From Candidatus Heimdallarchaeota archaeon (lineage in GTDB: Archaea; Asgardarchaeota; Heimdallarchaeia; Heimdallarchaeales; Heimdallarchaeaceae), in NCBI GenBank assembly GCA_021399345.1, contig JAAFKI010000094.1:1-64000 (forward strand): a stretch of DNA of 64,000 nt. The letters run 5' to 3'. Position 1 is the first letter of the stretch. Every line of letters starts with the position of its first letter. The translations under genes and the position numbers were made by a program. This document shows positions 40,245 to 55,132 of the stretch, one piece after another. Below the pieces are notes generated by a model that did not search any database, was not told the origin of the DNA, and saw only the letters and a program-made list of their open reading frames with translations.

Positions 40245-40940
40245 ATGAAGATTAATCTTGATTCCGATAATGAATGGGGTCATTTTATTGATCCTGATTC
40301 ATTTCAAATTGTAGAAATTACTGATGAAGTTCCAGATAAATCCTTTGTTGTTTTCAAAGAACGTGAGTACATTAGTGACATAGATAGAACAGTCATTCAG
40401 ACCACTTATGGGATAATTGATGGCAATAAGCTACAAACAATGAGTAAAAGAGAACTGAGTAAACTAATGTCAAAAGCTTGTGCAAAATATATTATTGATT
40501 TCGAAAAATTGCCTCCAAAAATAATGGTGGAGAAAAAGCTTATTATTGATAAACCCGCACAATTGGGTTTCATTCTGTCCAATCACGATACATTCCACTT
40601 GAAGATAGACAAAACTGCGTTAGAAGGAGGGAATCCCTTTGAGATTATTAATTCTATCATGGAAAATCAGGACTTTAAAACTACTATGTACGATAGAGAA
40701 GAGAAGTGGAAAATTGAATATGCAAAAAGTAGTCGTGCTAAATGCAGAAAGTGTGGTTCAAATATTGAGAAGGATACAATAAGAATAGGCGAACCTCATT
40801 ATTTTGAAGATCACTTAAACTATAGATGGCATCATGAGAAATGCGTATTCCTTCAAAGATTTGAGAAGAAAAATATTAAGGGACTTGATCTTCTAGAAGA
40901 AAAAGATAGAAAGAGGATAGAAGAGATATTGGATTCTTAA
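40245..40940 (+). CDS. protein with C-terminal PARP-type zinc finger
   Basis: IEYAKSSRAKCRKCGSNIEKDTIRIG...WHHEKC..IKGLDLLEEKDR. Confidence 0.85.
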   Translation: MKINLDSDNEWGHFIDPDSFQIVEITDEVPDKSFVVFKEREYISDIDRTVIQTTYGIIDGNKLQTMSKRELSKLMSKACAKYIIDFEKLPPKIMVEKKLIIDKPAQLGFILSNHDTFHLKIDKTALEGGNPFEIINSIMENQDFKTTMYDREEKWKIEYAKSSRAKCRKCGSNIEKDTIRIGEPHYFEDHLNYRWHHEKCVFLQRFEKKNIKGLDLLEEKDRKRIEEILDS

Positions 40941-42893: not shown

Positions 42894-43340
42894 TCACCAA
42901 AATGATTCTTTTATTTTCTTTAGAGCTGAGCTATCTTTAGCTGATTCATCCCATTTTATCATGAGCTCATCTATAATAGTCGTCATCTTTTCTTCTTCCT
43001 CAGCATTTAGTATTCCTGCTTCTGGAAGTTCTTCAAAATTAAAAGTAATCTGTGTTATCACATCTGCAATCATTGCGTTAATTGCTTCTGATTCAAATTC
43101 ATCCTTTATATCTTTTACAAGAGATACAACAAAATTGTTGGTAGCTTCTATATAGACTTCATGGGTTTGAGTTGTAAAGTAATTTGCTTCCCCTGCATCT
43201 AATTCAATCAATGCTGAACGTATTGCAGAAATTACTCCAGAAAATAAAGTAATTTTGGTTACATCATCTTCTTCTGGTATCCTTTCCTTAAAATATAGCG
43301 GAATACCCGTTCTTGAAATAATGTAAACAGCTTGAATCAT
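42894..43340 (-). CDS. stand-alone longin-like domain protein
   Basis: MIQAVYIISRTGIPLY..LFSGVISAIRS: longin beta-beta-alpha start. Confidence 0.75.
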   Translation of the reverse strand: MIQAVYIISRTGIPLYFKERIPEEDDVTKITLFSGVISAIRSALIELDAGEANYFTTQTHEVYIEATNNFVVSLVKDIKDEFESEAINAMIADVITQITFNFEELPEAGILNAEEEEKMTTIIDELMIKWDESAKDSSALKKIKESFW

Positions 43341-43464: not shown

Positions 43465-43659
43465 ATGCACATTGTAGTAAATTCAAAGCAAGAAAGAGAT
43501 ATTCTTATACAGTTATTCAACAGCTTAGAGAAGAAAGATATGAACTTTTTTTTGGATTTTGAAGATCCTTTATCTCTTCAAATTGAATCAATTTTTGATG
43601 ATCTATGTTCATGCGAGATACTAATAGACAAAGATGAAGAACCGTCCGGTATTGTCTGA
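43465..43659 (+). CDS. small acidic hypothetical protein
   Basis: 64 aa ORF filling the gap between genes. Confidence 0.5.
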   Translation: MHIVVNSKQERDILIQLFNSLEKKDMNFFLDFEDPLSLQIESIFDDLCSCEILIDKDEEPSGIV

Positions 43660-43707: not shown

Positions 43708-45051
43708 ATGTGGAAAAAACCAGATAGTTGTCAAGAGTGCGGAAGTTTGCTTATAGGGGATTCATTACGTTGTCCTACTTGTGAGAAACTGCTATCTGTA
43801 ACTCCAATTCGAGGTCCATCTAAATCTGATATTTCTCTCACATCTATGTGGTCATTTAGAGATTTTCTTCCAGAATACCCAAAGCCTATTTCTTTGTATG
43901 AAGGTAACACACCACTTATTGAAGTTAAGAATATAGAGAATCTTGCAGATTTAAGTTTGAAGTTAGAATTCCGAAATCCTACTGGTTCTTTTCGAGATAG
44001 AGCTAGTTCTCTAATCATTTCAGATGTTGTTAAGAAAAAATACTCTCAAGTAATTGGTGCAAGTACAGGATCCTTTAGCATCAGTTTATCTGCTTATGCT
44101 GCAAAAGCAGGAATAAAATCTTTAAGTGTTGTTCCCCAGAATTTGGAACTATCTAAAATTGAACAATTGAAGGTCTATGGTAGTAATGTAATTGAAAAAG
44201 GTGATTCTGTAGAAGAATCTATTGCTGAAGCTGAAAGACTTAGTAAAGAAACCTCTGCTTATCTTGCAACTCCTGAAAATAATCTCTTAGCTATTGAAGG
44301 ACAGAAAACCTTAGGACTAGAAATTGTCTTGCAAAAAGAGTTATTTGATGCTTTAATTGTTCCAAGAGGTTCTGGATCTCTTATTTATTCTATCTATAGA
44401 GGATTAGAAGATGCACTTGCTTCAGGATGGATAGAAGAACTACCCAGAATCTATGCAATATCTTTAGAGAAAACAAAGAGTGCTTACATGGCTGAATCCT
44501 TAGAAATTGAGCAACCCTTTCTTTTGAAGGAAGTACAAGAAACAATTAAGTTTTCTAAAGGAAAAGAGATAGAAATTGATGCTCAACAGATGATTGAGGA
44601 AGCATTGAATCTTTCTAAAAAGGAAGGATTATTTATTGAACCAGCTTCAGCTTCTGTTTTAGCAGCTGCTGATGAGTTGATTAAAGAAGAAGAAATAAAT
44701 CCTCAACATAGTGTTGCGATTCTTTCTGGATCCGGTTTTAATGCACTTAATATATATGCTACTCAATTGAGAGATAAAAGAAAAGTTGTCTGGGGATTAT
44801 CTGAAAGTTCTACAACTAAATTCGAGATATTGAATCTTATTTCAGAAGGTAAAGCAACGTATGGAATTTCTCTATGGGAATCCTTAGGGCGAGCTAAATC
44901 TAAACAATCTATTTATCAGCATCTAAATGAACTTAAAGAGAAAGGGTTGATAGTTTTATCTGAACAAGACACCAAAATTAAGCAGTTCAAAGTAACAAAG
45001 AAAGGTTTTGAAACCTTAGAAAAAATGAGAAATCTCATAGATTTTCTTTAA
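43708..45051 (+). CDS. threonine-synthase-like (fold-type II PLP) protein lacking the catalytic Lys, with C-terminal winged helix
   Basis: Zn ribbon, SLYEGNTPL, NPTGSFRDR (K to R), EGQKT, EPASA; C-terminal EILNLI..YGISLW..SKQSIYQHLNELKEKGLI..VTKKG. Confidence 0.88.
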   Translation: MWKKPDSCQECGSLLIGDSLRCPTCEKLLSVTPIRGPSKSDISLTSMWSFRDFLPEYPKPISLYEGNTPLIEVKNIENLADLSLKLEFRNPTGSFRDRASSLIISDVVKKKYSQVIGASTGSFSISLSAYAAKAGIKSLSVVPQNLELSKIEQLKVYGSNVIEKGDSVEESIAEAERLSKETSAYLATPENNLLAIEGQKTLGLEIVLQKELFDALIVPRGSGSLIYSIYRGLEDALASGWIEELPRIYAISLEKTKSAYMAESLEIEQPFLLKEVQETIKFSKGKEIEIDAQQMIEEALNLSKKEGLFIEPASASVLAAADELIKEEEINPQHSVAILSGSGFNALNIYATQLRDKRKVVWGLSESSTTKFEILNLISEGKATYGISLWESLGRAKSKQSIYQHLNELKEKGLIVLSEQDTKIKQFKVTKKGFETLEKMRNLIDFL

Positions 45052-45122
45052 AAATATTCAATTTTCACTAAAAAGAAACTAAGTGTAAATTTATCAAAAA
45101 AAGTACATAAGTGGATAATGTT

Positions 45123-45425
45123 CTAATCTGAACAGCTTCCATCTTGTAATTTATCTTTAATTCTGTCTCTAATCATGTCTTGAATTTGATCACACAAATT
45201 ATCACAATCGCAATCGCCATCACCATCGCAATCACCATCACAATCCCCTAAACGATTGTTTAGTTGATATCTTTCATGGATTTGCTCATGATCAGTATCT
45301 CCCGAACTGAAGAATGAGAAATATTCGTTACCAGTGCTAACTGTCTGATTTGAGGATGCGAGTTGCATTGTAAAAATCAGAAGAACAGCTAGACTAAAGC
45401 CGATAAATAGGTTCTTTGCCTTCAT
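45123..45425 (-). CDS. small secreted Asp/Cys-rich protein
   Basis: Signal peptide; DCDGDCDGDGDCDCD and RDRIKDKLQDGSC. Confidence 0.7.
   Translation of the reverse strand: MKAKNLFIGFSLAVLLIFTMQLASSNQTVSTGNEYFSFFSSGDTDHEQIHERYQLNNRLGDCDGDCDGDGDCDCDNLCDQIQDMIRDRIKDKLQDGSCSD
45201..45245. repeat. coding hexamer tandem repeat ATC(A/G)C(A/C) x7.5
   Basis: atcaca atcgca atcgcc atcacc atcgca atcacc atcaca atc. Confidence 0.8.
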
Positions 45426-45495
45426 AGATTTCGCCAAGATGCTATGCTGTACGTATTTATTAATACTTAATGCTTTAGAAAACTAAAGTAATCGT

Positions 45496-45516
45496 AAAAA
45501 TCTATTATAGATTTTT
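45496..45516. promoter_or_regulatory. 21-bp palindrome between divergent genes (candidate operator)
   Basis: AAAAATCTA-tta-TAGATTTTT, ~20 nt upstream of AAAAAAGTTATAAT. Confidence 0.45.
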
Positions 45517-45585
45517 TTTAGACTTACTGCGCACCAAAAAAGTTATAATGAGTTATTCAAGTTGTAACTTGAATATACGTTAGAT

Positions 45586-46398
45586 GTGATGATTATGGAG
45601 AAGGAAGCAGGATTAGGAGAAGTCTTCTTGAGAGAAGTTACTTCAATAAGAAATTTAGCATTAATTGTGACTTTTACTGGATTGGTCTTTCTTTCAACTT
45701 CGATATTCTTTATTGCAATTCCAACCTCTAGTGGATTTTTCAATATTGGTGAAGTATTTATCTATCTAGCTGCTTTAATTGGAGGACCAATAACTGGCGC
45801 TATTGCTGGAGGTGTGGGGGCTTCAATGGCCGATTTAGCACTTGGTTATGGTTTCTTTGCACCAGGAACAGCTGTTATAAAATTAGTTGAAGGATTTTTA
45901 GTAGGCTTGATTTTCCATTATGGTCGCAAATTGCCGAGTCAGATGAAAAACTTCTTCATGGGAGTTTCCAGCGGTGTATTAGTTAGTATCTCAGCTTTTT
46001 ATGTGAAAGAGGATTTTGTATTTGGCTTTTCATTTTATACTACTAAAACATTTGAAATAACTGTACCAGGTTATGTTTTTCTAATAATCTCTCTTTTCTT
46101 GAGCATATTAGTTTTGATAGTTATTACTTTTTTAAAAGAGAAAGGGGAAATGGCTCTTGCGTGTATTGTTGGTGGGGCATTTATGGTAATTGGATATTTC
46201 ATATATGAGAGATATATCTTAGGATATCCTATTGGAGCTGCTGCATCCGAAATACCATTCAACATTGCACAAGTAGTACTAAGTGCTTCACTTGTGATTC
46301 CAATTGTATCCTATCTAAGTGATCTAGGAATTTTAAGACGCTCTCTGAAGGTAGATATTGAAGAGGAAATAGTGAGTCTGGATGAAGAAGAAGACTAG
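45586..46398 (+). CDS. ECF transporter S component (PdxU/HmpT-like)
   Basis: GFFNIGEVFIYLAALIGGP..GAIAGGVGASMADL..GY..FAPGT..IK..EG and EIPFNIAQ. Confidence 0.85.
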   Translation: MMIMEKEAGLGEVFLREVTSIRNLALIVTFTGLVFLSTSIFFIAIPTSSGFFNIGEVFIYLAALIGGPITGAIAGGVGASMADLALGYGFFAPGTAVIKLVEGFLVGLIFHYGRKLPSQMKNFFMGVSSGVLVSISAFYVKEDFVFGFSFYTTKTFEITVPGYVFLIISLFLSILVLIVITFLKEKGEMALACIVGGAFMVIGYFIYERYILGYPIGAAASEIPFNIAQVVLSASLVIPIVSYLSDLGILRRSLKVDIEEEIVSLDEEED

Positions 46399-46421
46399 TA
46401 CTCAAACAACTTGGTGCAACA

Positions 46422-48059
46422 ATGCTAAAGATAGAGAATCTAAATGTAAAATATCCAACTAGTAAAGAATATGCTTTGGAAAACATCAATTTAGAAGCTT
46501 CTAGAGGAGAATTCATTGTTGTAGCAGGCCCTAGCGGGAGTGGTAAGAGCACCCTTGCTCAAGTTCTAATGACTTTAATCCCCAATTTCACTGAAGCTAG
46601 GATTTCTGGTGAAATCTCCTATAATGGAATTTCCTTTAAGGAGTTGACAAGAGATAAACTTGTTAGCTTACTAGGTTATGTTCCTCAATATCCAAGTGAT
46701 TTTACAACATCATTATTAGTTGAGGAAGAAATTGTTTTTCTGTTAGAAAATCTTGCTCTAGATTCGGAAGAAATTATATCTAGACTTAATCAAGTTTTGA
46801 CTGAACTTGAAATAAGTTCACTACAAAGAAGAGTAATTCCTGAGCTAAGTTCTGGTGAATTGCAAAGAGTTTTTTTAGCATCTGCTCTAGCCTTTGCTCC
46901 CCCTATCATTATATTAGATGAACCTATAGCAAGGATTGATCCAAAAACAGAAGTCAAACTGGTTGAACTTCTGCGAAAACTGGCTAATAATGGCCATTTA
47001 GTTATTGCATTTGAGCACCGCCTTGATTATATTGTGACAAAAGCTGATAGGTTAGTTATTTTAAAAAAGGGAGAGATAGTTAGTGATGGACATCCATCTA
47101 ATAATATTGATCTGTTAGAAGATATTGACCCACCAGAACTATCTCTGATAGATTTCAAAGATAAAGAAAAAATAATTTCTCTTGAAGATCAAGTAGATTT
47201 GAAAAGAATAATCTCAAGAATTAAAAATATGGATATCTCAAAGCTGTATAAGTTAGATAATGAAACATCTAGTGATACAACCATTTCTTTGAATCAAGTG
47301 AATTTTAGATATAACAACAAAACTAACTGGATATTGAAGGATGTAAATCTTCAATTCAAGAAAGGAGAATCTATAGGATTAATGGGGATAAATGGTTGTG
47401 GTAAATCTACTTTGATGAAGGTCATCTTGGGAATTGAAAAAACAAGAAAAGGTGAAGTCTGGATAAAAGGAAGAAAAATCAAGAATGTCAGAAAGGGAAA
47501 AAAAGATTGCATATATGTTCCTGAAAACGCAAAACTATTTCTAGTTGGACCTACGCCCATAAGAGATTTAGAAAGACAGCTTAGAAATAATGAGGAAGTT
47601 ATAGAAATTTATAACAATTTCAAAATGCAAAAGCTGATGAAAAGGAAACTCTATCATTTGAGTGAAGGAGAGAGGAGACTTTTTGCTTTGATAAATTCAT
47701 TTCACTTTCACAAAGATATTATTTTGTTGGATGAACCTACAATTGCTTTGGACAAAAAGGGTCGAAGAATTCTACTTGAACTAGTTGAAACAGCAAAAGA
47801 AAATGGAAACACTGTCATTCTTGCAACTAATGATCCTAGAATTGTAACATCTTTGGATAGATTGGTTGTTATAGAAAATGGAGATATATGTTTAGATGGG
47901 CTTCCTCGAGATGTTCTATATGAGTTGGAAAAACAAACAAATCTGATACCTAATCAAACTGTAAGATTGATTCAAAAACTGGAAAAAGAAACAGGTATCT
48001 CTCTTCCTAAAATTCTAAATCCCGAAGAATTCAATTTATTACTTAAGGAGGTTGAATAG
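46422..48059 (+). CDS. ECF transporter fused double ATPase (A-A')
   Basis: GPSGSGKST/LSSGE/LDEP and GINGCGKST/LSEGE/LDEPT. Confidence 0.92.
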   Translation: MLKIENLNVKYPTSKEYALENINLEASRGEFIVVAGPSGSGKSTLAQVLMTLIPNFTEARISGEISYNGISFKELTRDKLVSLLGYVPQYPSDFTTSLLVEEEIVFLLENLALDSEEIISRLNQVLTELEISSLQRRVIPELSSGELQRVFLASALAFAPPIIILDEPIARIDPKTEVKLVELLRKLANNGHLVIAFEHRLDYIVTKADRLVILKKGEIVSDGHPSNNIDLLEDIDPPELSLIDFKDKEKIISLEDQVDLKRIISRIKNMDISKLYKLDNETSSDTTISLNQVNFRYNNKTNWILKDVNLQFKKGESIGLMGINGCGKSTLMKVILGIEKTRKGEVWIKGRKIKNVRKGKKDCIYVPENAKLFLVGPTPIRDLERQLRNNEEVIEIYNNFKMQKLMKRKLYHLSEGERRLFALINSFHFHKDIILLDEPTIALDKKGRRILLELVETAKENGNTVILATNDPRIVTSLDRLVVIENGDICLDGLPRDVLYELEKQTNLIPNQTVRLIQKLEKETGISLPKILNPEEFNLLLKEVE

Positions 48060-48785
48060 ATGTCCTTTATGTTAAAGAGAATCTATGATGGTTTTCTGTA
48101 CAAACCTGATAAACTTCAAATTCACCCATTAATTGGAATTATTATCATATCAATTCAATTTGGATTTCTAATTCTAAATAAAAACTGGGTGTTAGCACTT
48201 TTGTTGATATTCATAATTTTTGAAAATGTAATTTTTAGAAATATTAGAGGATCCTTAAGCATTTTATGGGCTCTTTTACCAATTATGATATTTCTAGGAG
48301 GGTTAACTTACCTCTTTGGAGGTTGGGAAATTACATATCGTGTTTTAATGCGTTTGCTTGTTGGTGGTCTAGGTTTTTCCTTTTTCTTTTCTATTATTAA
48401 TCCTTCAGACTTGACAAGAAGTCTTGAAAAATTAAAAATCCCCACCAAAATCGCATTGATTCCTTCTCTAGCTTTAATGATGATTCCTAGAATAGCTAAA
48501 GATGCTGAAGATACTTTTACAACTCTTAAAATTCGAGGTGAAATCAAAGGTTTCTTTCTGAGATGGTTACCAAGAGTATTAGCAATCTTTATTGCTTCAG
48601 TAATCTATAGATCAGAATTTCTAGCACAATCTTTATACTTCAAAGGTTTAGGAATTCAAAAGAGAACTCACTATAGAAAACTTCCATTTAGGTGGGTTGA
48701 TTTTTTTAGATTATTTATCTGGAGTAGCTTTATAGTTTGCTTTATTTTGATAGATAAATATGATTTGTTTTATTTCTTCGTTTAG
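48060..48785 (+). CDS. ecfT: ECF transporter T component
   Basis: NPSDLTRSLEKLKIP, IRG and FKG coupling motifs; operon context. Confidence 0.85.
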   Translation: MSFMLKRIYDGFLYKPDKLQIHPLIGIIIISIQFGFLILNKNWVLALLLIFIIFENVIFRNIRGSLSILWALLPIMIFLGGLTYLFGGWEITYRVLMRLLVGGLGFSFFFSIINPSDLTRSLEKLKIPTKIALIPSLALMMIPRIAKDAEDTFTTLKIRGEIKGFFLRWLPRVLAIFIASVIYRSEFLAQSLYFKGLGIQKRTHYRKLPFRWVDFFRLFIWSSFIVCFILIDKYDLFYFFV

Positions 48786-50327: not shown

Positions 50328-50786
50328 TTATGTAAGAAGTTTCATCACTTCATCTACAGCTTCATGAATTTCCAATGAAGGTTCTTGCATAAATTCGACT
50401 GATTTAGCTTGAGCACCTATAAACAAGAACTCCTTTTTTTGAATTTCAATTAAATCTTTTATCTGAGGTAAAGGAATTGAATGACTTGTTAAAGGTCTTA
50501 TATACTCTGATATATCAGTTGTTACCAACACTGAACCTGGTTTAGCACCATAATTTATAGCATCAATTATCACTACAGCATCATAGATGTCCTTAACTAT
50601 AATTTCTACAAGAAAAACCGATATGTCTTCAACTTCCTCAGAAAAAACATTCGTTGGATAGAATTTAACTAATTTTTCAGCCACCATCAAACCAAATGCA
50701 TCATCTGCTCTATCCCTATTACCAAAACAAAAAAAAGCAATTTTGGAGAGTTCTATATTATGAAAAAAAGGGTGGGAAGGTGACAA
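50328..50786 (-). CDS. hycI: hydrogenase maturation protease
   Basis: GNRDRADDAFG, IIDA, TSHSIP; TTG start directly after the hydA stop with GGTGA upstream. Confidence 0.88.
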   Translation of the reverse strand: MSPSHPFFHNIELSKIAFFCFGNRDRADDAFGLMVAEKLVKFYPTNVFSEEVEDISVFLVEIIVKDIYDAVVIIDAINYGAKPGSVLVTTDISEYIRPLTSHSIPLPQIKDLIEIQKKEFLFIGAQAKSVEFMQEPSLEIHEAVDEVMKLLT

Positions 50787-52076
50787 CTATTGTTTCACCA
50801 ATTTAACCATATGGCAACTACAAGAAATACATGGATCATATGCACGAGCAATCATTTCTAGTTGTAATTCTGTATCTGGGTTATCTTCAGCTAAAAGTTT
50901 ATCTGCAGCTGTTTTGATGAATTCTTCAACATCATCTAAGAACTGTGCAGTAGGAGTAATAATGTCTGCATGGACTATTTTATGATCCTTAATCTCATAA
51001 GAGTGGTACAAAGTTCCTCTTGGAGCTTCCACAGCAGCTGTTCCTTTACCATCCATTTCATAATCAGTTACAATTTCAGAATCTGGCAAAGCTTTGATTT
51101 GCTCTATCAATCCTGGTATTTGTTCAAAACACCAAAGTGCTTCTATTAATTGAGCCATATTGTTGTATATTGGATTAACTTTCCACTTGTCATTATAGTA
51201 TTTGTCAAACTTCTCTTTTGCTTCTCCAGTAAGTCTATCCCCAATGAGTATTAATCTGGCTAATGCACCAACAGTAAATGGTTTATCTTTGTATTTAGAT
51301 CTCTTAGCATAACTGTGTTCAACAACTCGCTCATTGGTCAGTTTTTTATAATCCTCAACAGGATATTTTTCCCCTGTTGAGATAAGAATTGTTTCTCCTT
51401 CAAAGCCAAATTTGCCATCAGCTGGGTTGCAGCACATGAATTGAGTTTCTCTTTCGCAATAATCAGGGATTGGTAATGTTCCCCAAACATCAATGAAAGC
51501 TGAAATCTTTTCCTTAAATTCAACTGCTTTTTCAGCAAAATAATCTAATTCTTCATCAGTTGGATTTCTTCCAAAACCGCCAATCAGAGCATTTTCTCCA
51601 TGGATTTTTCTTCCATGTAGAAGCTTCATCAACTCAGTTGCGTATTTCTTCATTACTACTGCTTCAACTACTGTGTCTGTGTGAGTAGGAAGCATTGCAA
51701 TAGCAGAAGCTTGTTTAAAGAAATCAGGTAGTGCAAGATAGTATACATGAAGCACATGGCTTTCTATAATTTCTGCATAATGCCAAAGATGTCTAAGTAA
51801 TTGAGTTTTTTCTGGAACTTTTACTTTGAGAGCTTTTTCAATCGCTCTAATTGAAGCATTTCTATGAGATACTGTACAAATTGCACAAATTCTAGCTACT
51901 AAAGAAATGTTTTCATGAATAGTTTTACCTCTAACAAGGGCTTCTATCATTCTTGGTCCCTCGAAAATATTCACAAGAACTTTGTCTACTTTTCCATCTT
52001 TTGAATAAACTTGAATTCCTCCATCCCCTTCAACTCTAGCTAATACATCTACACTAATTGTTTTTTCACCCATCAT
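50787..52076 (-). CDS. hydA: [NiFe] hydrogenase large subunit, group 3b (sulfhydrogenase alpha)
   Basis: ARVEG, RICAIC, EAPRG, AYDPCISCSCH plus short extension. Confidence 0.93.
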   Translation of the reverse strand: MMGEKTISVDVLARVEGDGGIQVYSKDGKVDKVLVNIFEGPRMIEALVRGKTIHENISLVARICAICTVSHRNASIRAIEKALKVKVPEKTQLLRHLWHYAEIIESHVLHVYYLALPDFFKQASAIAMLPTHTDTVVEAVVMKKYATELMKLLHGRKIHGENALIGGFGRNPTDEELDYFAEKAVEFKEKISAFIDVWGTLPIPDYCERETQFMCCNPADGKFGFEGETILISTGEKYPVEDYKKLTNERVVEHSYAKRSKYKDKPFTVGALARLILIGDRLTGEAKEKFDKYYNDKWKVNPIYNNMAQLIEALWCFEQIPGLIEQIKALPDSEIVTDYEMDGKGTAAVEAPRGTLYHSYEIKDHKIVHADIITPTAQFLDDVEEFIKTAADKLLAEDNPDTELQLEMIARAYDPCISCSCHMVKLVKQ

Positions 52077-52867
52077 TTTTCACCCTTTAAAGCTAGCTCT
52101 GTAGCTTTACCTCCAAACATCATCAGCTTCCTTTTCGCATCTTCTTCAGTTAAACCAATTTCAACCAACTTCTCAATCATTGATTCAAAGTTTGCTCCTT
52201 CGTATGCTCCAAAGCATCCAACACAAGGAACTCCAAAGTTAGGACAACATGCATCACAACCTCCAGCTGTAACTGGACCTAAACAGAATTTTCCGTGTAA
52301 CAAGAAGCAATCATTTTCTTGGAATTTGCATTCAACGCATACAGGATAAGGATATTTAGTAGGTTTTAAGCCACTTATTAATTTAGTATATATTGGAATG
52401 AAATTTTCCTTGGCAATTGGACAACCTGGAATAGAATAATCGACTTCTATGAACTTATGGATAGGTTCTGCAGGTATTGGATTTCCAACTAATTCACTGA
52501 ATTCAGGAATCTTTCCATCTTTACCATATACAAGAAGCATCCTTTCTTTGAATTCTTTCTCGTTATCACCAAGATATTGAATTCCGCCATGAGTTGCACA
52601 GGTTCCAAGAGCTACAACAATGTCTGCCTTTTCTCTAATTTTTTTAAGTTCTGCAAGCTGTTTATCAGTGTTAATGCTGCCTTCAACAAGAGCAATATCT
52701 ACATGATCAACCTCTTGATGAGATTGAGCCATATGGAAGAATTTTATATCGGCACTTGTAAAGAAATCAACTAATTCGTCTTCCATGTGAAGAATAGCTA
52801 GTTGATCTCCAGCACAACCTGAAAATCCAAAAACTCCAACAACAGGTTTCTTTTCTCTTTGCCACAT
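52073..52867 (-). CDS. hydD: group 3b hydrogenase small subunit (delta)
   Basis: GCAGDQ, GTCATHGG, PGCP, CVEC, CLGPVT, PCVGC. Confidence 0.9.
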   Translation of the reverse strand: MWQREKKPVVGVFGFSGCAGDQLAILHMEDELVDFFTSADIKFFHMAQSHQEVDHVDIALVEGSINTDKQLAELKKIREKADIVVALGTCATHGGIQYLGDNEKEFKERMLLVYGKDGKIPEFSELVGNPIPAEPIHKFIEVDYSIPGCPIAKENFIPIYTKLISGLKPTKYPYPVCVECKFQENDCFLLHGKFCLGPVTAGGCDACCPNFGVPCVGCFGAYEGANFESMIEKLVEIGLTEEDAKRKLMMFGGKATELALKGEK

Positions 52868-52868
52868 T

Positions 52869-53722
52869 TTAGATCAGCTCCTTTATATGCTGAACATCAT
52901 AAAATGTGAAGACTGGTCCTTCTAAACACGTATATCGACCGCCTATGGCGCAATGCCCACAATGCCCTTGTCCGCATTTCATCCTTCTTTCTAAAGTCAT
53001 CAAAATCTGGTCTTTTGGTATTTTCAGCTTAAGTAACTCTTGAATAACATATTTATACATGATTGGTGGTCCACAAATTATAGCTGTCGTTTTCTCGCTG
53101 ACTACTCTATCTGTAATCTTAGGGAATAATGTAGTTACAACACCTTCATGGTAAGGCCATTCTCCAGTATCATCTTTATCAACAGATAAATGGGATTCTA
53201 TGATCCCTCTTTGAGCCATAGCTATGATATCCTCTCTATATAACATATCAGCTGGACTTCTAGCGCCATTCAAGAAAAATACTTGATTAAATTCTTCTCT
53301 TCTGTCTTCTACGTAAAGAAGCACCGATCTTAATGGAATAGCTCCCAAACCACCTGAAATAATTATCAGATCTCTTCCCCTTAGACTCTCCATGTTAAAT
53401 CCATCTCCATAAGGACCTCGTAAATGGACTAAATCCCCTACTTTTAGTTTGAATAAAGCTTCTGTAAATGAACCTACTTTTCTCACTCCAAATTCAATGA
53501 AATCTGTTCTTGTTGGTGGGGAGGATATTGAAAATACTGCTTCACCAACACCTGGTAAAGACATAATTGCAAATTGTCCTGGTTTGTAATTTTCTTCCAC
53601 AATGCTTTCATCTAAGAATTTAAACTTGAAATATCTTGTATCTTCTGTTAAATCCTTCATAGCAAGAATTTTTGCTGGTTGTGTTACGTAAGAATGATCT
53701 CCTTCTCTAGTTGTTATTGCCA
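52869..53722 (-). CDS. hydG: group 3b hydrogenase FAD/NAD(P) subunit (gamma)
   Basis: PGQF, RGPYG, GGLG, CGPP, MKCGQGHCGHC..C. Confidence 0.9.
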
Positions 53723-54766
53723 TTATTCACAAACCTCCTGATTTTCACATACTTCTTCATACAATGCTTTAGAAACTGTTATCACATTGATATCTACTGG
53801 ACAATAGGTTACACATCTTCCACATCCAACACAGCTTGGTTGTCCCCATCTCCCAATGTATTCTTTCAATTTGTGAGTGTAATATAATTTCAAACGAGAA
53901 GTTCTGTCTGGTCTGAAATCATGTCCACCTGCAACCATAGAATAACAAGGAAGTGTACAACTATCTAGAATTCTTTCTCTAAATCCATCTTCTGTGTTCA
54001 TACTTATTCTATCTTCAACATTGAAGCAATTACATGTTGGACATACTAGACTACATGTTCCACAAGATAGACATTTTTCGCCAAATTGATCCCATACTTT
54101 ACTATCGTAATTCAGATGAATTATGTCCGCTAAGTATTTGAACGAAGGTATTTCGCTCTTGAACATTTCTGACCTCTTTTGTTGCCATCTTACGTATTCC
54201 TGAATCTCTTCTTCTGAAATTTCTTCAGTTAGAATGTCTTCATTTTCGATTGCAATACTAAGACCTTTATCTGATCCTACCCACACAAGATAATGGTCAG
54301 CTAATTCAGTAAAGAACAAATCAAAACCGTCCTCTACCATATCAGTACCTGTTGATTGACAAATGCAATTTTCATCAGGTAAGCACGAATGACCTATTAT
54401 TATCAGATTATTTCTTCGTTTTTCGTAATATGGATCTTTAATGTTCCCTAGGAATAATCTATCCAAGATTTTAATTCCATGAATATCACAGGGATGTACT
54501 CCAATAACTATTTGAGTTTCATCACTGACAAACACATCAGTTTGACCAGACTTATCATAACGAAGAGTTTGATATCTAGGTGGTGTAAGGAATTTTTTTG
54601 GACCTATTACTGTCCTTTGATAATCGAAATCAAGATCTTCAAATTTCTCGATTTCTTCAAAGGAATATTTCCCGTTTCCCTTTACTGGTCCATAGAGCTG
54701 CCCTTTAGTTTTTATTTTCTCAATGAACTCTGGAAACCTATCCTTAGACATCTTATAAGTTTTCAT
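53723..54766 (-). CDS. hydB: group 3b hydrogenase Fe-S subunit (beta)
   Basis: HPCD, CLSCGTCSLVCPTCNC, CVGCGRCVTYCP; start MKTYKM at 54766. Confidence 0.9.
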   Translation of the reverse strand: MKTYKMSKDRFPEFIEKIKTKGQLYGPVKGNGKYSFEEIEKFEDLDFDYQRTVIGPKKFLTPPRYQTLRYDKSGQTDVFVSDETQIVIGVHPCDIHGIKILDRLFLGNIKDPYYEKRRNNLIIIGHSCLPDENCICQSTGTDMVEDGFDLFFTELADHYLVWVGSDKGLSIAIENEDILTEEISEEEIQEYVRWQQKRSEMFKSEIPSFKYLADIIHLNYDSKVWDQFGEKCLSCGTCSLVCPTCNCFNVEDRISMNTEDGFRERILDSCTLPCYSMVAGGHDFRPDRTSRLKLYYTHKLKEYIGRWGQPSCVGCGRCVTYCPVDINVITVSKALYEEVCENQEVCE

Positions 54767-54789
54767 GTCAAGAGAATTTTTAAAATTAT

Positions 54790-54798
54790 ACTTATAAG
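54790..54798 (-). promoter_or_regulatory. TATA box of the hyd operon (probably leaderless)
   Basis: CTTATAAGT about 24 nt upstream of ATG 54766. Confidence 0.5.
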
Positions 54799-55132
54799 GT
54801 AATCTATAGGGATATCTTCTGAAAATGGAGAATTTTAGAGAGATGCAATAAAGTAATTTTGAGTTTAACTCCAAGATTTTTGATATTTGCAAAATTTTCA
54901 AAAAAGTACTTATCTGTGTGAATTTTTGACACATAAATTAATACAAAACTTAGTTATTAGTTGTTTGAAATATGTATTAACAATATGTATGATACCTTGT
55001 ACAATTAGTTTAAAACTACCTTTAACAGCCTATAAGTAACAACAAATGTTTGTTTAATTATTCAAACGTTTTATTTGTAAGAAAAACTTATAACACATTA
55101 TATAGATGATTTATTAATAAAACATTGATAAA

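Follow-up and report, generated by a model that had tools for sequence, protein, structure and literature searches.

We describe a candidate regulator of vitamin B6 uptake and synthesis that is encoded in a 64,000-nucleotide stretch of archaeal DNA (contig JAAFKI010000094.1, our C21; hereafter the window), from a genome of 3.27 Mb that is 88.6% complete and has its closest protein relatives in Candidatus Heimdallarchaeaceae. In its 447-residue product a zinc ribbon and a threonine synthase (ThrC)-like domain of pyridoxal phosphate (PLP) fold type II, which has lost the catalytic lysine, are fused to a C-terminal PadR-like winged helix, and the gene lies upstream of an operon for an energy-coupling factor (ECF) transporter (Table 1). 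We consider it likely that this protein is a one-component B6 regulator, namely a repressor that acts as a dimer and senses, without a covalent bond, a B6 vitamer that is probably PLP. The architecture and the loss of the lysine are family-wide, the linkage to B6-related genes is conserved, and a conserved palindromic site tracks the regulator across genomes.

In the mechanism that we propose, the regulator would dimerize through its ThrC-like core, so that its two winged helices could bind the 18-bp palindrome, whose symmetry itself argues for a dimer. On its site, past the TATA box and ahead of the first ECF gene, it would block initiation, and this position points to repression. The dead domain, which appears to keep the cofactor pocket without the lysine or the substrate-phosphate site, may bind a B6 vitamer reversibly, PLP being the likeliest effector, since it is what PdxST produces and the phosphate loop has been retained. 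The targets make and import B6, and so the ligand is expected to reinforce repression: when B6 is abundant it would act as a co-repressor and the uptake and synthesis genes would be turned off. The regulon in the source genome would then be the single ECF importer operon, and in relatives it would be, or include, pdxST.

Apparent loss of catalysis and a retained cofactor pocket

The original prediction, made from the letters of the window without database searches, held that the Schiff-base lysine is replaced, and alignment bears this out: the motif reads NPTGSFRDR, with Arg96 (CGA) opposite Lys61 of Thermus thermophilus ThrC (1UIM), which we take to be the Schiff-base lysine. A sequencing error at this codon is ruled out because the arginine is invariant in 98/98 close family sequences. 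The other motif features that it listed are all present, namely ASTGS at 118-122, Ala195 in place of the Arg before EGQKT, PRGSGS at 219-224 and EPASA at 311-315. So is the C-terminal fusion to a winged helix-turn-helix (HTH) domain, which is seen in sub-threshold Pfam matches to PadR (374-438) and HTH_45 (402-445), and as four helices plus a wing in the AlphaFold2 model (predicted local distance difference test score, pLDDT, 75-90 for this domain; mean 87.8). The rest of the model comprises the zinc ribbon, a two-domain ThrC core and a flexible linker (356-364); Pfam PALP covers residues 61-341 (E 2e-54), and threonine synthases rank top in Foldseek. The winged helix is of the PadR/HTH_45-like type: its best natural sequence match is the PadR-family protein RosR (E 1.4e-3), and there is no GntR match for it.

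The cofactor-site positions are fixed in Arg-type proteins (G221, G223 and G343 in 96/96, E311 in 95/96, Thr/Ser340 in 92/96), and the Gly-rich loop that bears the first two presumably corresponds to the cofactor-phosphate loop of ThrC. In the substrate site, positions 120 (D/T/N/S) and 123 (F/M/L) drift across the family, and the positions of ThrC Arg160 and Thr88 are lost. A fixed cofactor site together with a drifting substrate site suggests that a binding pocket was kept without its chemistry, and the loss of the lysine would render cofactor binding reversible. Conservation extends to the zinc-ribbon cysteines (C8, C11 and C25 in 91/91, C22 in 88/91) and to residues Q400, Y403 and H405 of the presumed recognition helix, which are kept in 93-95/96 Arg-type proteins. 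The regulator thus has the ThrC-like structure of PLP fold type II, but with neither the Schiff-base lysine nor the substrate-phosphate site (Ala195, and STGSF for the STGNT loop), and by these two defining features its sequence indicates that it is not a threonine synthase.

Lysine loss and the winged helix go together, as the original prediction had expected. The close family set, consisting of 97 database proteins that match over full length or are fragments of such proteins, amounts to 98 sequences in all; Arg96 is found in 98/98 and the winged helix in 95, the other three being truncated. The next 23 database matches are all helix-less and have Lys in 23/23. When species genomes were scanned with a sequence pattern, about 580 candidate stretches resulted; among the 80 retained are Heimdallarchaeia, Lokiarchaeia, Bathyarchaeia, Desulfurococcales, Thermococcales and Methanomethylicia. 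A sister group that has Ile, Leu, Val, Thr or Met in place of the lysine came from a profile search; a second related-locus search aimed at this hydrophobic clade gave mostly true ThrC. Altogether, 165/167 helix-fused sequences (a partly redundant set) are without Lys, with Arg in 96, another residue in 69 and Lys in 2, and 75 helix-less sequences keep it. The few cases of Arg without a helix are mostly truncated, and full-length helix-less relatives retain Lys. In a quick tree the Arg group forms one branch (Shimodaira-Hasegawa-like approximate likelihood ratio test, SH-aLRT, 98) with the two Lys-bearing members, both of which sit on short contigs, nested inside it; 60/61 helix-fused rows group together in a branch of weak support (SH-aLRT 83), by which a single origin is not established. 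Within the family Heimdallarchaeaceae the gene is present in 28/30 genomes.

Fold type II chemistry requires the Schiff-base lysine. It is extremely unlikely that the protein is catalytically active, as a threonine synthase or in B6 salvage, whether or not it also binds DNA as a moonlighting function. Such activity would agree with the database label, with the Lys of two of the 167 helix-fused members and with the salvage step that is missing, no full-length PdxK-type kinase having been found in 61 genomes; it is at odds with the tolerance of R, I, L, V, T, M and F at the lysine position across the family and with the loss of the phosphohomoserine-binding Arg. Furthermore, contigs C192 and C19 each carry a Lys-intact ThrC-like paralogue, and these two are candidates for the separate thrC that the original prediction called for.

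The best NCBIfam model of the regulator bears the same name; it is the equivalog NF004170 (PRK05638, 'threonine synthase'), which is matched along its whole length, winged helix included, with 276 bits against a cut-off of 421. Arg-bearing orthologues exceed this cut-off (T. chitonophagus 800 bits, Thermosphaera 423 bits). As Arg-bearing members pass a model that spans the helix, NF004170 appears to have been built on, and to describe, the regulator family rather than threonine synthase. Where a genome is credited with threonine synthase on the strength of PRK05638, the gene in question may encode the regulator instead, a point that bears on amino-acid pathway calls in Asgard and TACK archaea.

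A conserved candidate operator that tracks the regulator

Of the palindrome that had been noticed between the regulator and the ECF operon, there are in fact two examples with 10-bp arms, at 45496-45516 and 45554-45575. Only the second is conserved; the first is not seen in orthologous leaders and was rejected as operator. The candidate operator in the second lies 7 bp past the TTATAA box, itself preceded by an A-run, and 12 bp ahead of the S-component start codon. On a matrix built from 15 Asgard S-component leaders, with the studied site excluded, it scores 27.3 bits, the top value in the genome; the next site in 3.27 Mb (17.6 bits) is inside a coding region. The conserved core of the site, AAG-N6-CTT, fits the likewise conserved helix that is presumed to recognize it.

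The same site stands before B6 genes elsewhere, and its presence follows that of the regulator. The pdxS leaders of relatives score 12.3-25.9 bits in 9/9 regulator-bearing genomes, often with tandem sites, and those of 14 regulator-less genomes (in which neither protein nor profile search found a helix-fused homologue) score at most 7.0 bits, with a site in 0/14. When leaders of S components distant from the regulator were scored with a broader matrix and compared with shuffles, 21/25 had a site at p <= 0.02, four Thermococcales included; both Desulfurococcales pdxST-S operons are headed by tandem sites, and overall 23/27 S-component genes away from the regulator are preceded by the palindrome. 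The S-component leaders of five regulator-less genomes give 3.9, 11.4, 3.5, 5.9 and -2.1 bits, none reaching 12, and the 11.4-bit site is not kept in its close orthologue. As background, 14/2347 source-genome genes reach 12 bits on the broad matrix; several of the compared genomes are incomplete.

Other regulons were considered and rejected. A threonine regulon is not supported, as no site precedes hom (C54) or the ThrC-like genes. Nor is a larger regulon in the source genome, since the next gene leaders reach at most 15.8 bits and have no B6 link. Autoregulation is not indicated, because only 3/75 regulator leaders have a site, with a divergent target that accounts or may account for two of these, and the source genome has none. 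A sigma-70 promoter scan, irrelevant for archaea, gave fewer matches than shuffles. The Arg-clade matrix found no sites at the hydrophobic-clade loci L144, L145, L290 and L294. At two of these (L144:5940-5965 and L290:4351-4385) the regulator is divergent to an S component, and a variant palindrome TATAAG-N6-CTTATA is apparent, though it is TATA-like and seen at two loci only; regulators of this sister clade have a hydrophobic residue at the Lys position and often Pro for Gln400.

The homodimer model scored 0.87 against 0.00 for the best control, with contact agreement of at least 51% between runs and pLDDT of at least 84; the mark for this dimer score is reached by 20/30 solved pairs and 1/23 single chains. 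Because the predicted dimer runs through the ThrC core, it probably recalls solved ThrC dimers.

The same protein, site and targets could also operate by the opposite logic, with the apo-protein binding to activate or repress and a B6 vitamer releasing it. Precedents exist, as apo-PdxR of bacteria activates pdxST with PLP as anti-activator (PMC5320631), and FMN suppresses DNA binding by RbkR, a predicted archaeal activator (PMC5397151). However, relative to the TATA box RbkR sites are upstream and the Heimdallarchaeaceae site is downstream, across the expected start, which is the geometry of a repressor; moreover, a repressor freed by B6 would turn synthesis on just when B6 is abundant. We therefore regard this inverse logic as quite improbable, and favor a repressor for which B6 is the co-repressor.

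Gene neighborhoods and the ECF transporter

Clustering of all open reading frames (ORFs) within 8 kb of 81 regulator loci showed the ECF S component to be the commonest neighbor (41/81 loci), followed by the ECF ATPase (28) and the T component (24). The order of regulator and S component varies between tandem, divergent (L081, L098) and convergent (L107), and members of the hydrophobic sister clade adjoin the same S component (L144, L145, L290, L294). In L048 and L050 pdxS, joined in L050 by pdxT, stands directly or nearly downstream of the regulator in the place of the ECF operon; in five genomes of another family (f6) the regulator is divergent to pdxS; and in two Desulfurococcales pdxS, pdxT and the S component form one operon apart from the regulator. 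The linkage to the ECF genes is conserved across phyla and gene orders. The association with the ECF operon, which the original prediction could base on proximity alone, is far stronger than that, in view of this linkage, the shared operator and the presence of pdxST in the regulon. As a separate observation, in the Thermococcales loci L110, L113, L114, L119 and L291 the regulator directly follows genes for the proteasome beta subunit and an aCPSF1/FttA-type nuclease, and the operator stands before a distant S component.

The S component of the window matches PF07155 (E 2e-21), and its nearest solved structure is ECF-HmpT/PdxU2 of Lactobacillus brevis (4HZU; E 3e-7), first named for the thiamine precursor hydroxymethylpyrimidine (HMP) and later found to have pyridoxamine as its bound substrate (PMC4860826). 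Four of the six named pocket residues are shared: HmpT E41, Y120, N140 and Q143 correspond to E56, Y204, N226 and Q229, kept in 37-40/41 homologues. Unlike the L. brevis protein, the archaeal one is of about 270 residues with an extra membrane insert, and is part of a group I operon with a fused ATPase.

The same target genes might respond to another signal, for example to an amino acid, to an adduct of PLP with an amino acid, or to HMP that the transporter brings in. This would suit the descent of the sensor domain from an amino-acid enzyme and the first name of HmpT, as well as one hydrophobic-clade member whose divergent neighbors encode an amino-acid permease and a class V aminotransferase (L298:1305-5338), which suggests that some sister-clade paralogues regulate other genes. 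Yet the Arg-clade regulon contains pdxST, which makes PLP only, and this disfavors HMP relative to B6, as does the lack of thiamine genes among the recurrent neighbor clusters inspected. The amino-acid option, which the original prediction had left beside B6, is disfavored for the Arg subfamily by the lack of an operator before hom or ThrC-like genes, and the substrate-site residues vary where those of the cofactor site are fixed. Another signal is thus rather unlikely, and a B6 vitamer remains the preferred ligand.

Points against the proposal and the imported vitamer

Several observations weigh against the B6-repressor proposal. Both Pfam matches of the winged helix fall below their cut-offs (E 2e-4). 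The equivalent of ThrC Asn87, which presumably contacts the PLP phenol, is Ser in the Asgard clade, and the transporter has Lys99 in place of HmpT H84 (Lys in 40/41 archaeal homologues) and Glu in place of Q87 (39/41); with these three replacements, affinities and vitamer preference could differ, and which B6 vitamer binds cannot be read from the sequence. Among the distant S-component leaders, 4/25 have no clear site. The genomes are related, hence the counts of sites and linkages are not independent, and in Desulfurococcales the site overlaps the transcription factor B recognition element (BRE) and TATA element, so that the signal there may in part come from the promoter.

The same lysine raises a further possibility. 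Only 4/30 Heimdallarchaeaceae genomes were found to have pdxS, which was not found in the source genome, and a full-length PdxK/ThiD-type kinase had no match in the 61 genomes examined; the source genome has two PfkB-family proteins. For genomes in which both B6 pathways are missing, either PLP must enter by a route not yet known or kinases not yet known must be at work (PMC9997740), and here either an unrecognized kinase salvages B6 or the transporter imports PLP itself. Lys99 in place of His84, together with the lack of a recognizable PdxK-type kinase, hints at uptake of pyridoxal or PLP. We tentatively entertain the wider idea, doubtful as it stands, that an old family of transcription factors derived from fold type II PLP pseudoenzymes is a general B6 regulator of many archaeal lineages, concealed by a curated 'threonine synthase' model, and that its ECF target imports PLP by means of the near-invariant Lys99. 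If so, this import would explain how most Heimdallarchaeaceae manage without pdxS and a recognizable PdxK-type kinase.

Other features of the locus

The ECF operon downstream of the regulator is complete, as had been predicted, all three kinds of component having been found with Pfam (Table 1). Upstream of the regulator, with a gap of 48 bp and in the same orientation, is an acidic ORF of 64 residues (43465-43659, +) without a Pfam family, which is kept in 24/29 relative loci at 44-100% identity and may be co-transcribed with the regulator. Between the regulator and the ECF operon lies an ORF of 104 residues (45123-45437, -) whose start resembles a signal peptide and which contains a variable Cys/Asp repeat; it is present at this place in many Heimdallarchaeaceae and absent in others (L040 and L041, with an 89-bp gap), and is probably an exported metal-binding protein without relation to B6. 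Farther upstream are a roadblock/longin-like protein with a weak Robl_LC7 match (42894-43340, -) and a protein with a PARP-type zinc finger (40245-40940, +), and a sulfhydrogenase-type NiFe hydrogenase cluster is found at 50328-54934. RNA runs gave two short contigs only, at a depth below 4.

Table 1. Features of the regulator and ECF transporter locus (positions in the window)
Feature	Position	Strand	Basis or remark
Gene of the proposed regulator (447 aa), with zinc ribbon, ThrC-like domain of PLP fold type II without the catalytic lysine, and PadR-like winged helix	43708-45051	+	ORF, Pfam, predicted structure
Cys4 zinc ribbon, residues 8-25	43729-43782	+	Common to archaeal Lys-intact ThrC
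Arg96 codon CGA at Schiff-base lysine position	43993-43995	+	Alignment
Gly-rich loop, residues 219-224; G221 and G223 invariant	44362-44379	+	Alignment
Winged helix-turn-helix, residues 366-447	44803-45048	+	Pfam, predicted structure, sequence match
BRE-like A-run and TATA box (TTATAA, 45543-45548) of ECF operon	45534-45548	+	Same position in Heimdallarchaeaceae orthologues; putative promoter
Candidate operator TTCAAGTTGTAACTTGAA, 18 bp	45556-45573 (perfect 10-bp arms span 45554-45575)	strandless	Matrix score and conservation
ECF S component, HmpT/PdxU2 type (PF07155)	45586-46398	+	Pfam
ECF fused AA' ATPase	46422-48059	+	Profile matches
ECF T component, CbiQ family	48060-48785	+	Pfam

Comparison with known systems

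The closest structural relatives of the regulator are the short zinc-ribbon threonine synthases (1UIM, 2ZSJ, 6NMX; NF006050), with which it shares the zinc ribbon, the predicted dimer interface and a fold similar at a template modeling score of 0.8 by target (root-mean-square deviation 2.7-3.2 A, 28-33% identity), and from which it differs in the absence of the Schiff-base lysine and the substrate-phosphate Arg and in the added winged helix.

Two known archaeal regulators are of comparable design, and differ from this one in vitamin, fold and position of the helix. The sensor of ThiR, a thiamine-phosphate-synthase-like domain, is reportedly inactive. RbkR, by contrast, is still an active kinase and is a predicted activator (PMC5397151). 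ThiR (Rodionov et al. 2017, J Bacteriol 199:e00743-16, cited in PMC10746257) and RbkR (PMC5397151) alike join an HTH to an enzyme domain of the cofactor pathway and have a regulon of synthesis and uptake genes. Here too we find an HTH joined to a cofactor-binding enzyme domain and a palindrome before synthesis and uptake genes that co-occurs with the regulator, but, unlike in ThiR and RbkR, the sensor comes from a PLP-using amino-acid enzyme and not from the vitamin's own pathway. No published description of such an archaeal B6 regulator was found in the searchable literature, which leaves most subscription journals and RegPrecise outside; we regard it as a new family of regulators that follows an established principle. 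B6 transporters have received little study, and in only two cases has the substrate been verified (PMC9997740); the regulon would mark archaeal PF07155 S components as B6 importers. With an operator and a target list at hand, the proposal is directly testable in cultured Thermococcales, as T. chitonophagus carries the regulator.

The nearest functional parallel is bacterial PdxR of the MocR family, which is stated to be absent from Archaea and whose regulon comprises pdxST, pdxK and pdxU (PMC5320631). Like PdxR and other MocR/GabR proteins, the archaeal regulator couples a winged helix to a sensor derived from a PLP enzyme, its apparent regulon comprises pdxST and a PF07155 B6 transporter, and it is often divergent to pdxST. 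MocR proteins, however, have an N-terminal GntR helix and a class I aminotransferase domain of fold type I, whereas here the helix is C-terminal and PadR-like and the sensor is a fold type II ThrC domain without its lysine. Neither domain is thus that of MocR/PdxR; the regulon of pdxST and a B6 transporter is indicated by the shared site and linkage, with binding of the regulator presumed, and the two are convergent, not homologous. If our reading is correct, it fills the gap in archaeal B6 regulation with a second, independent route from a PLP enzyme to a PLP sensor.

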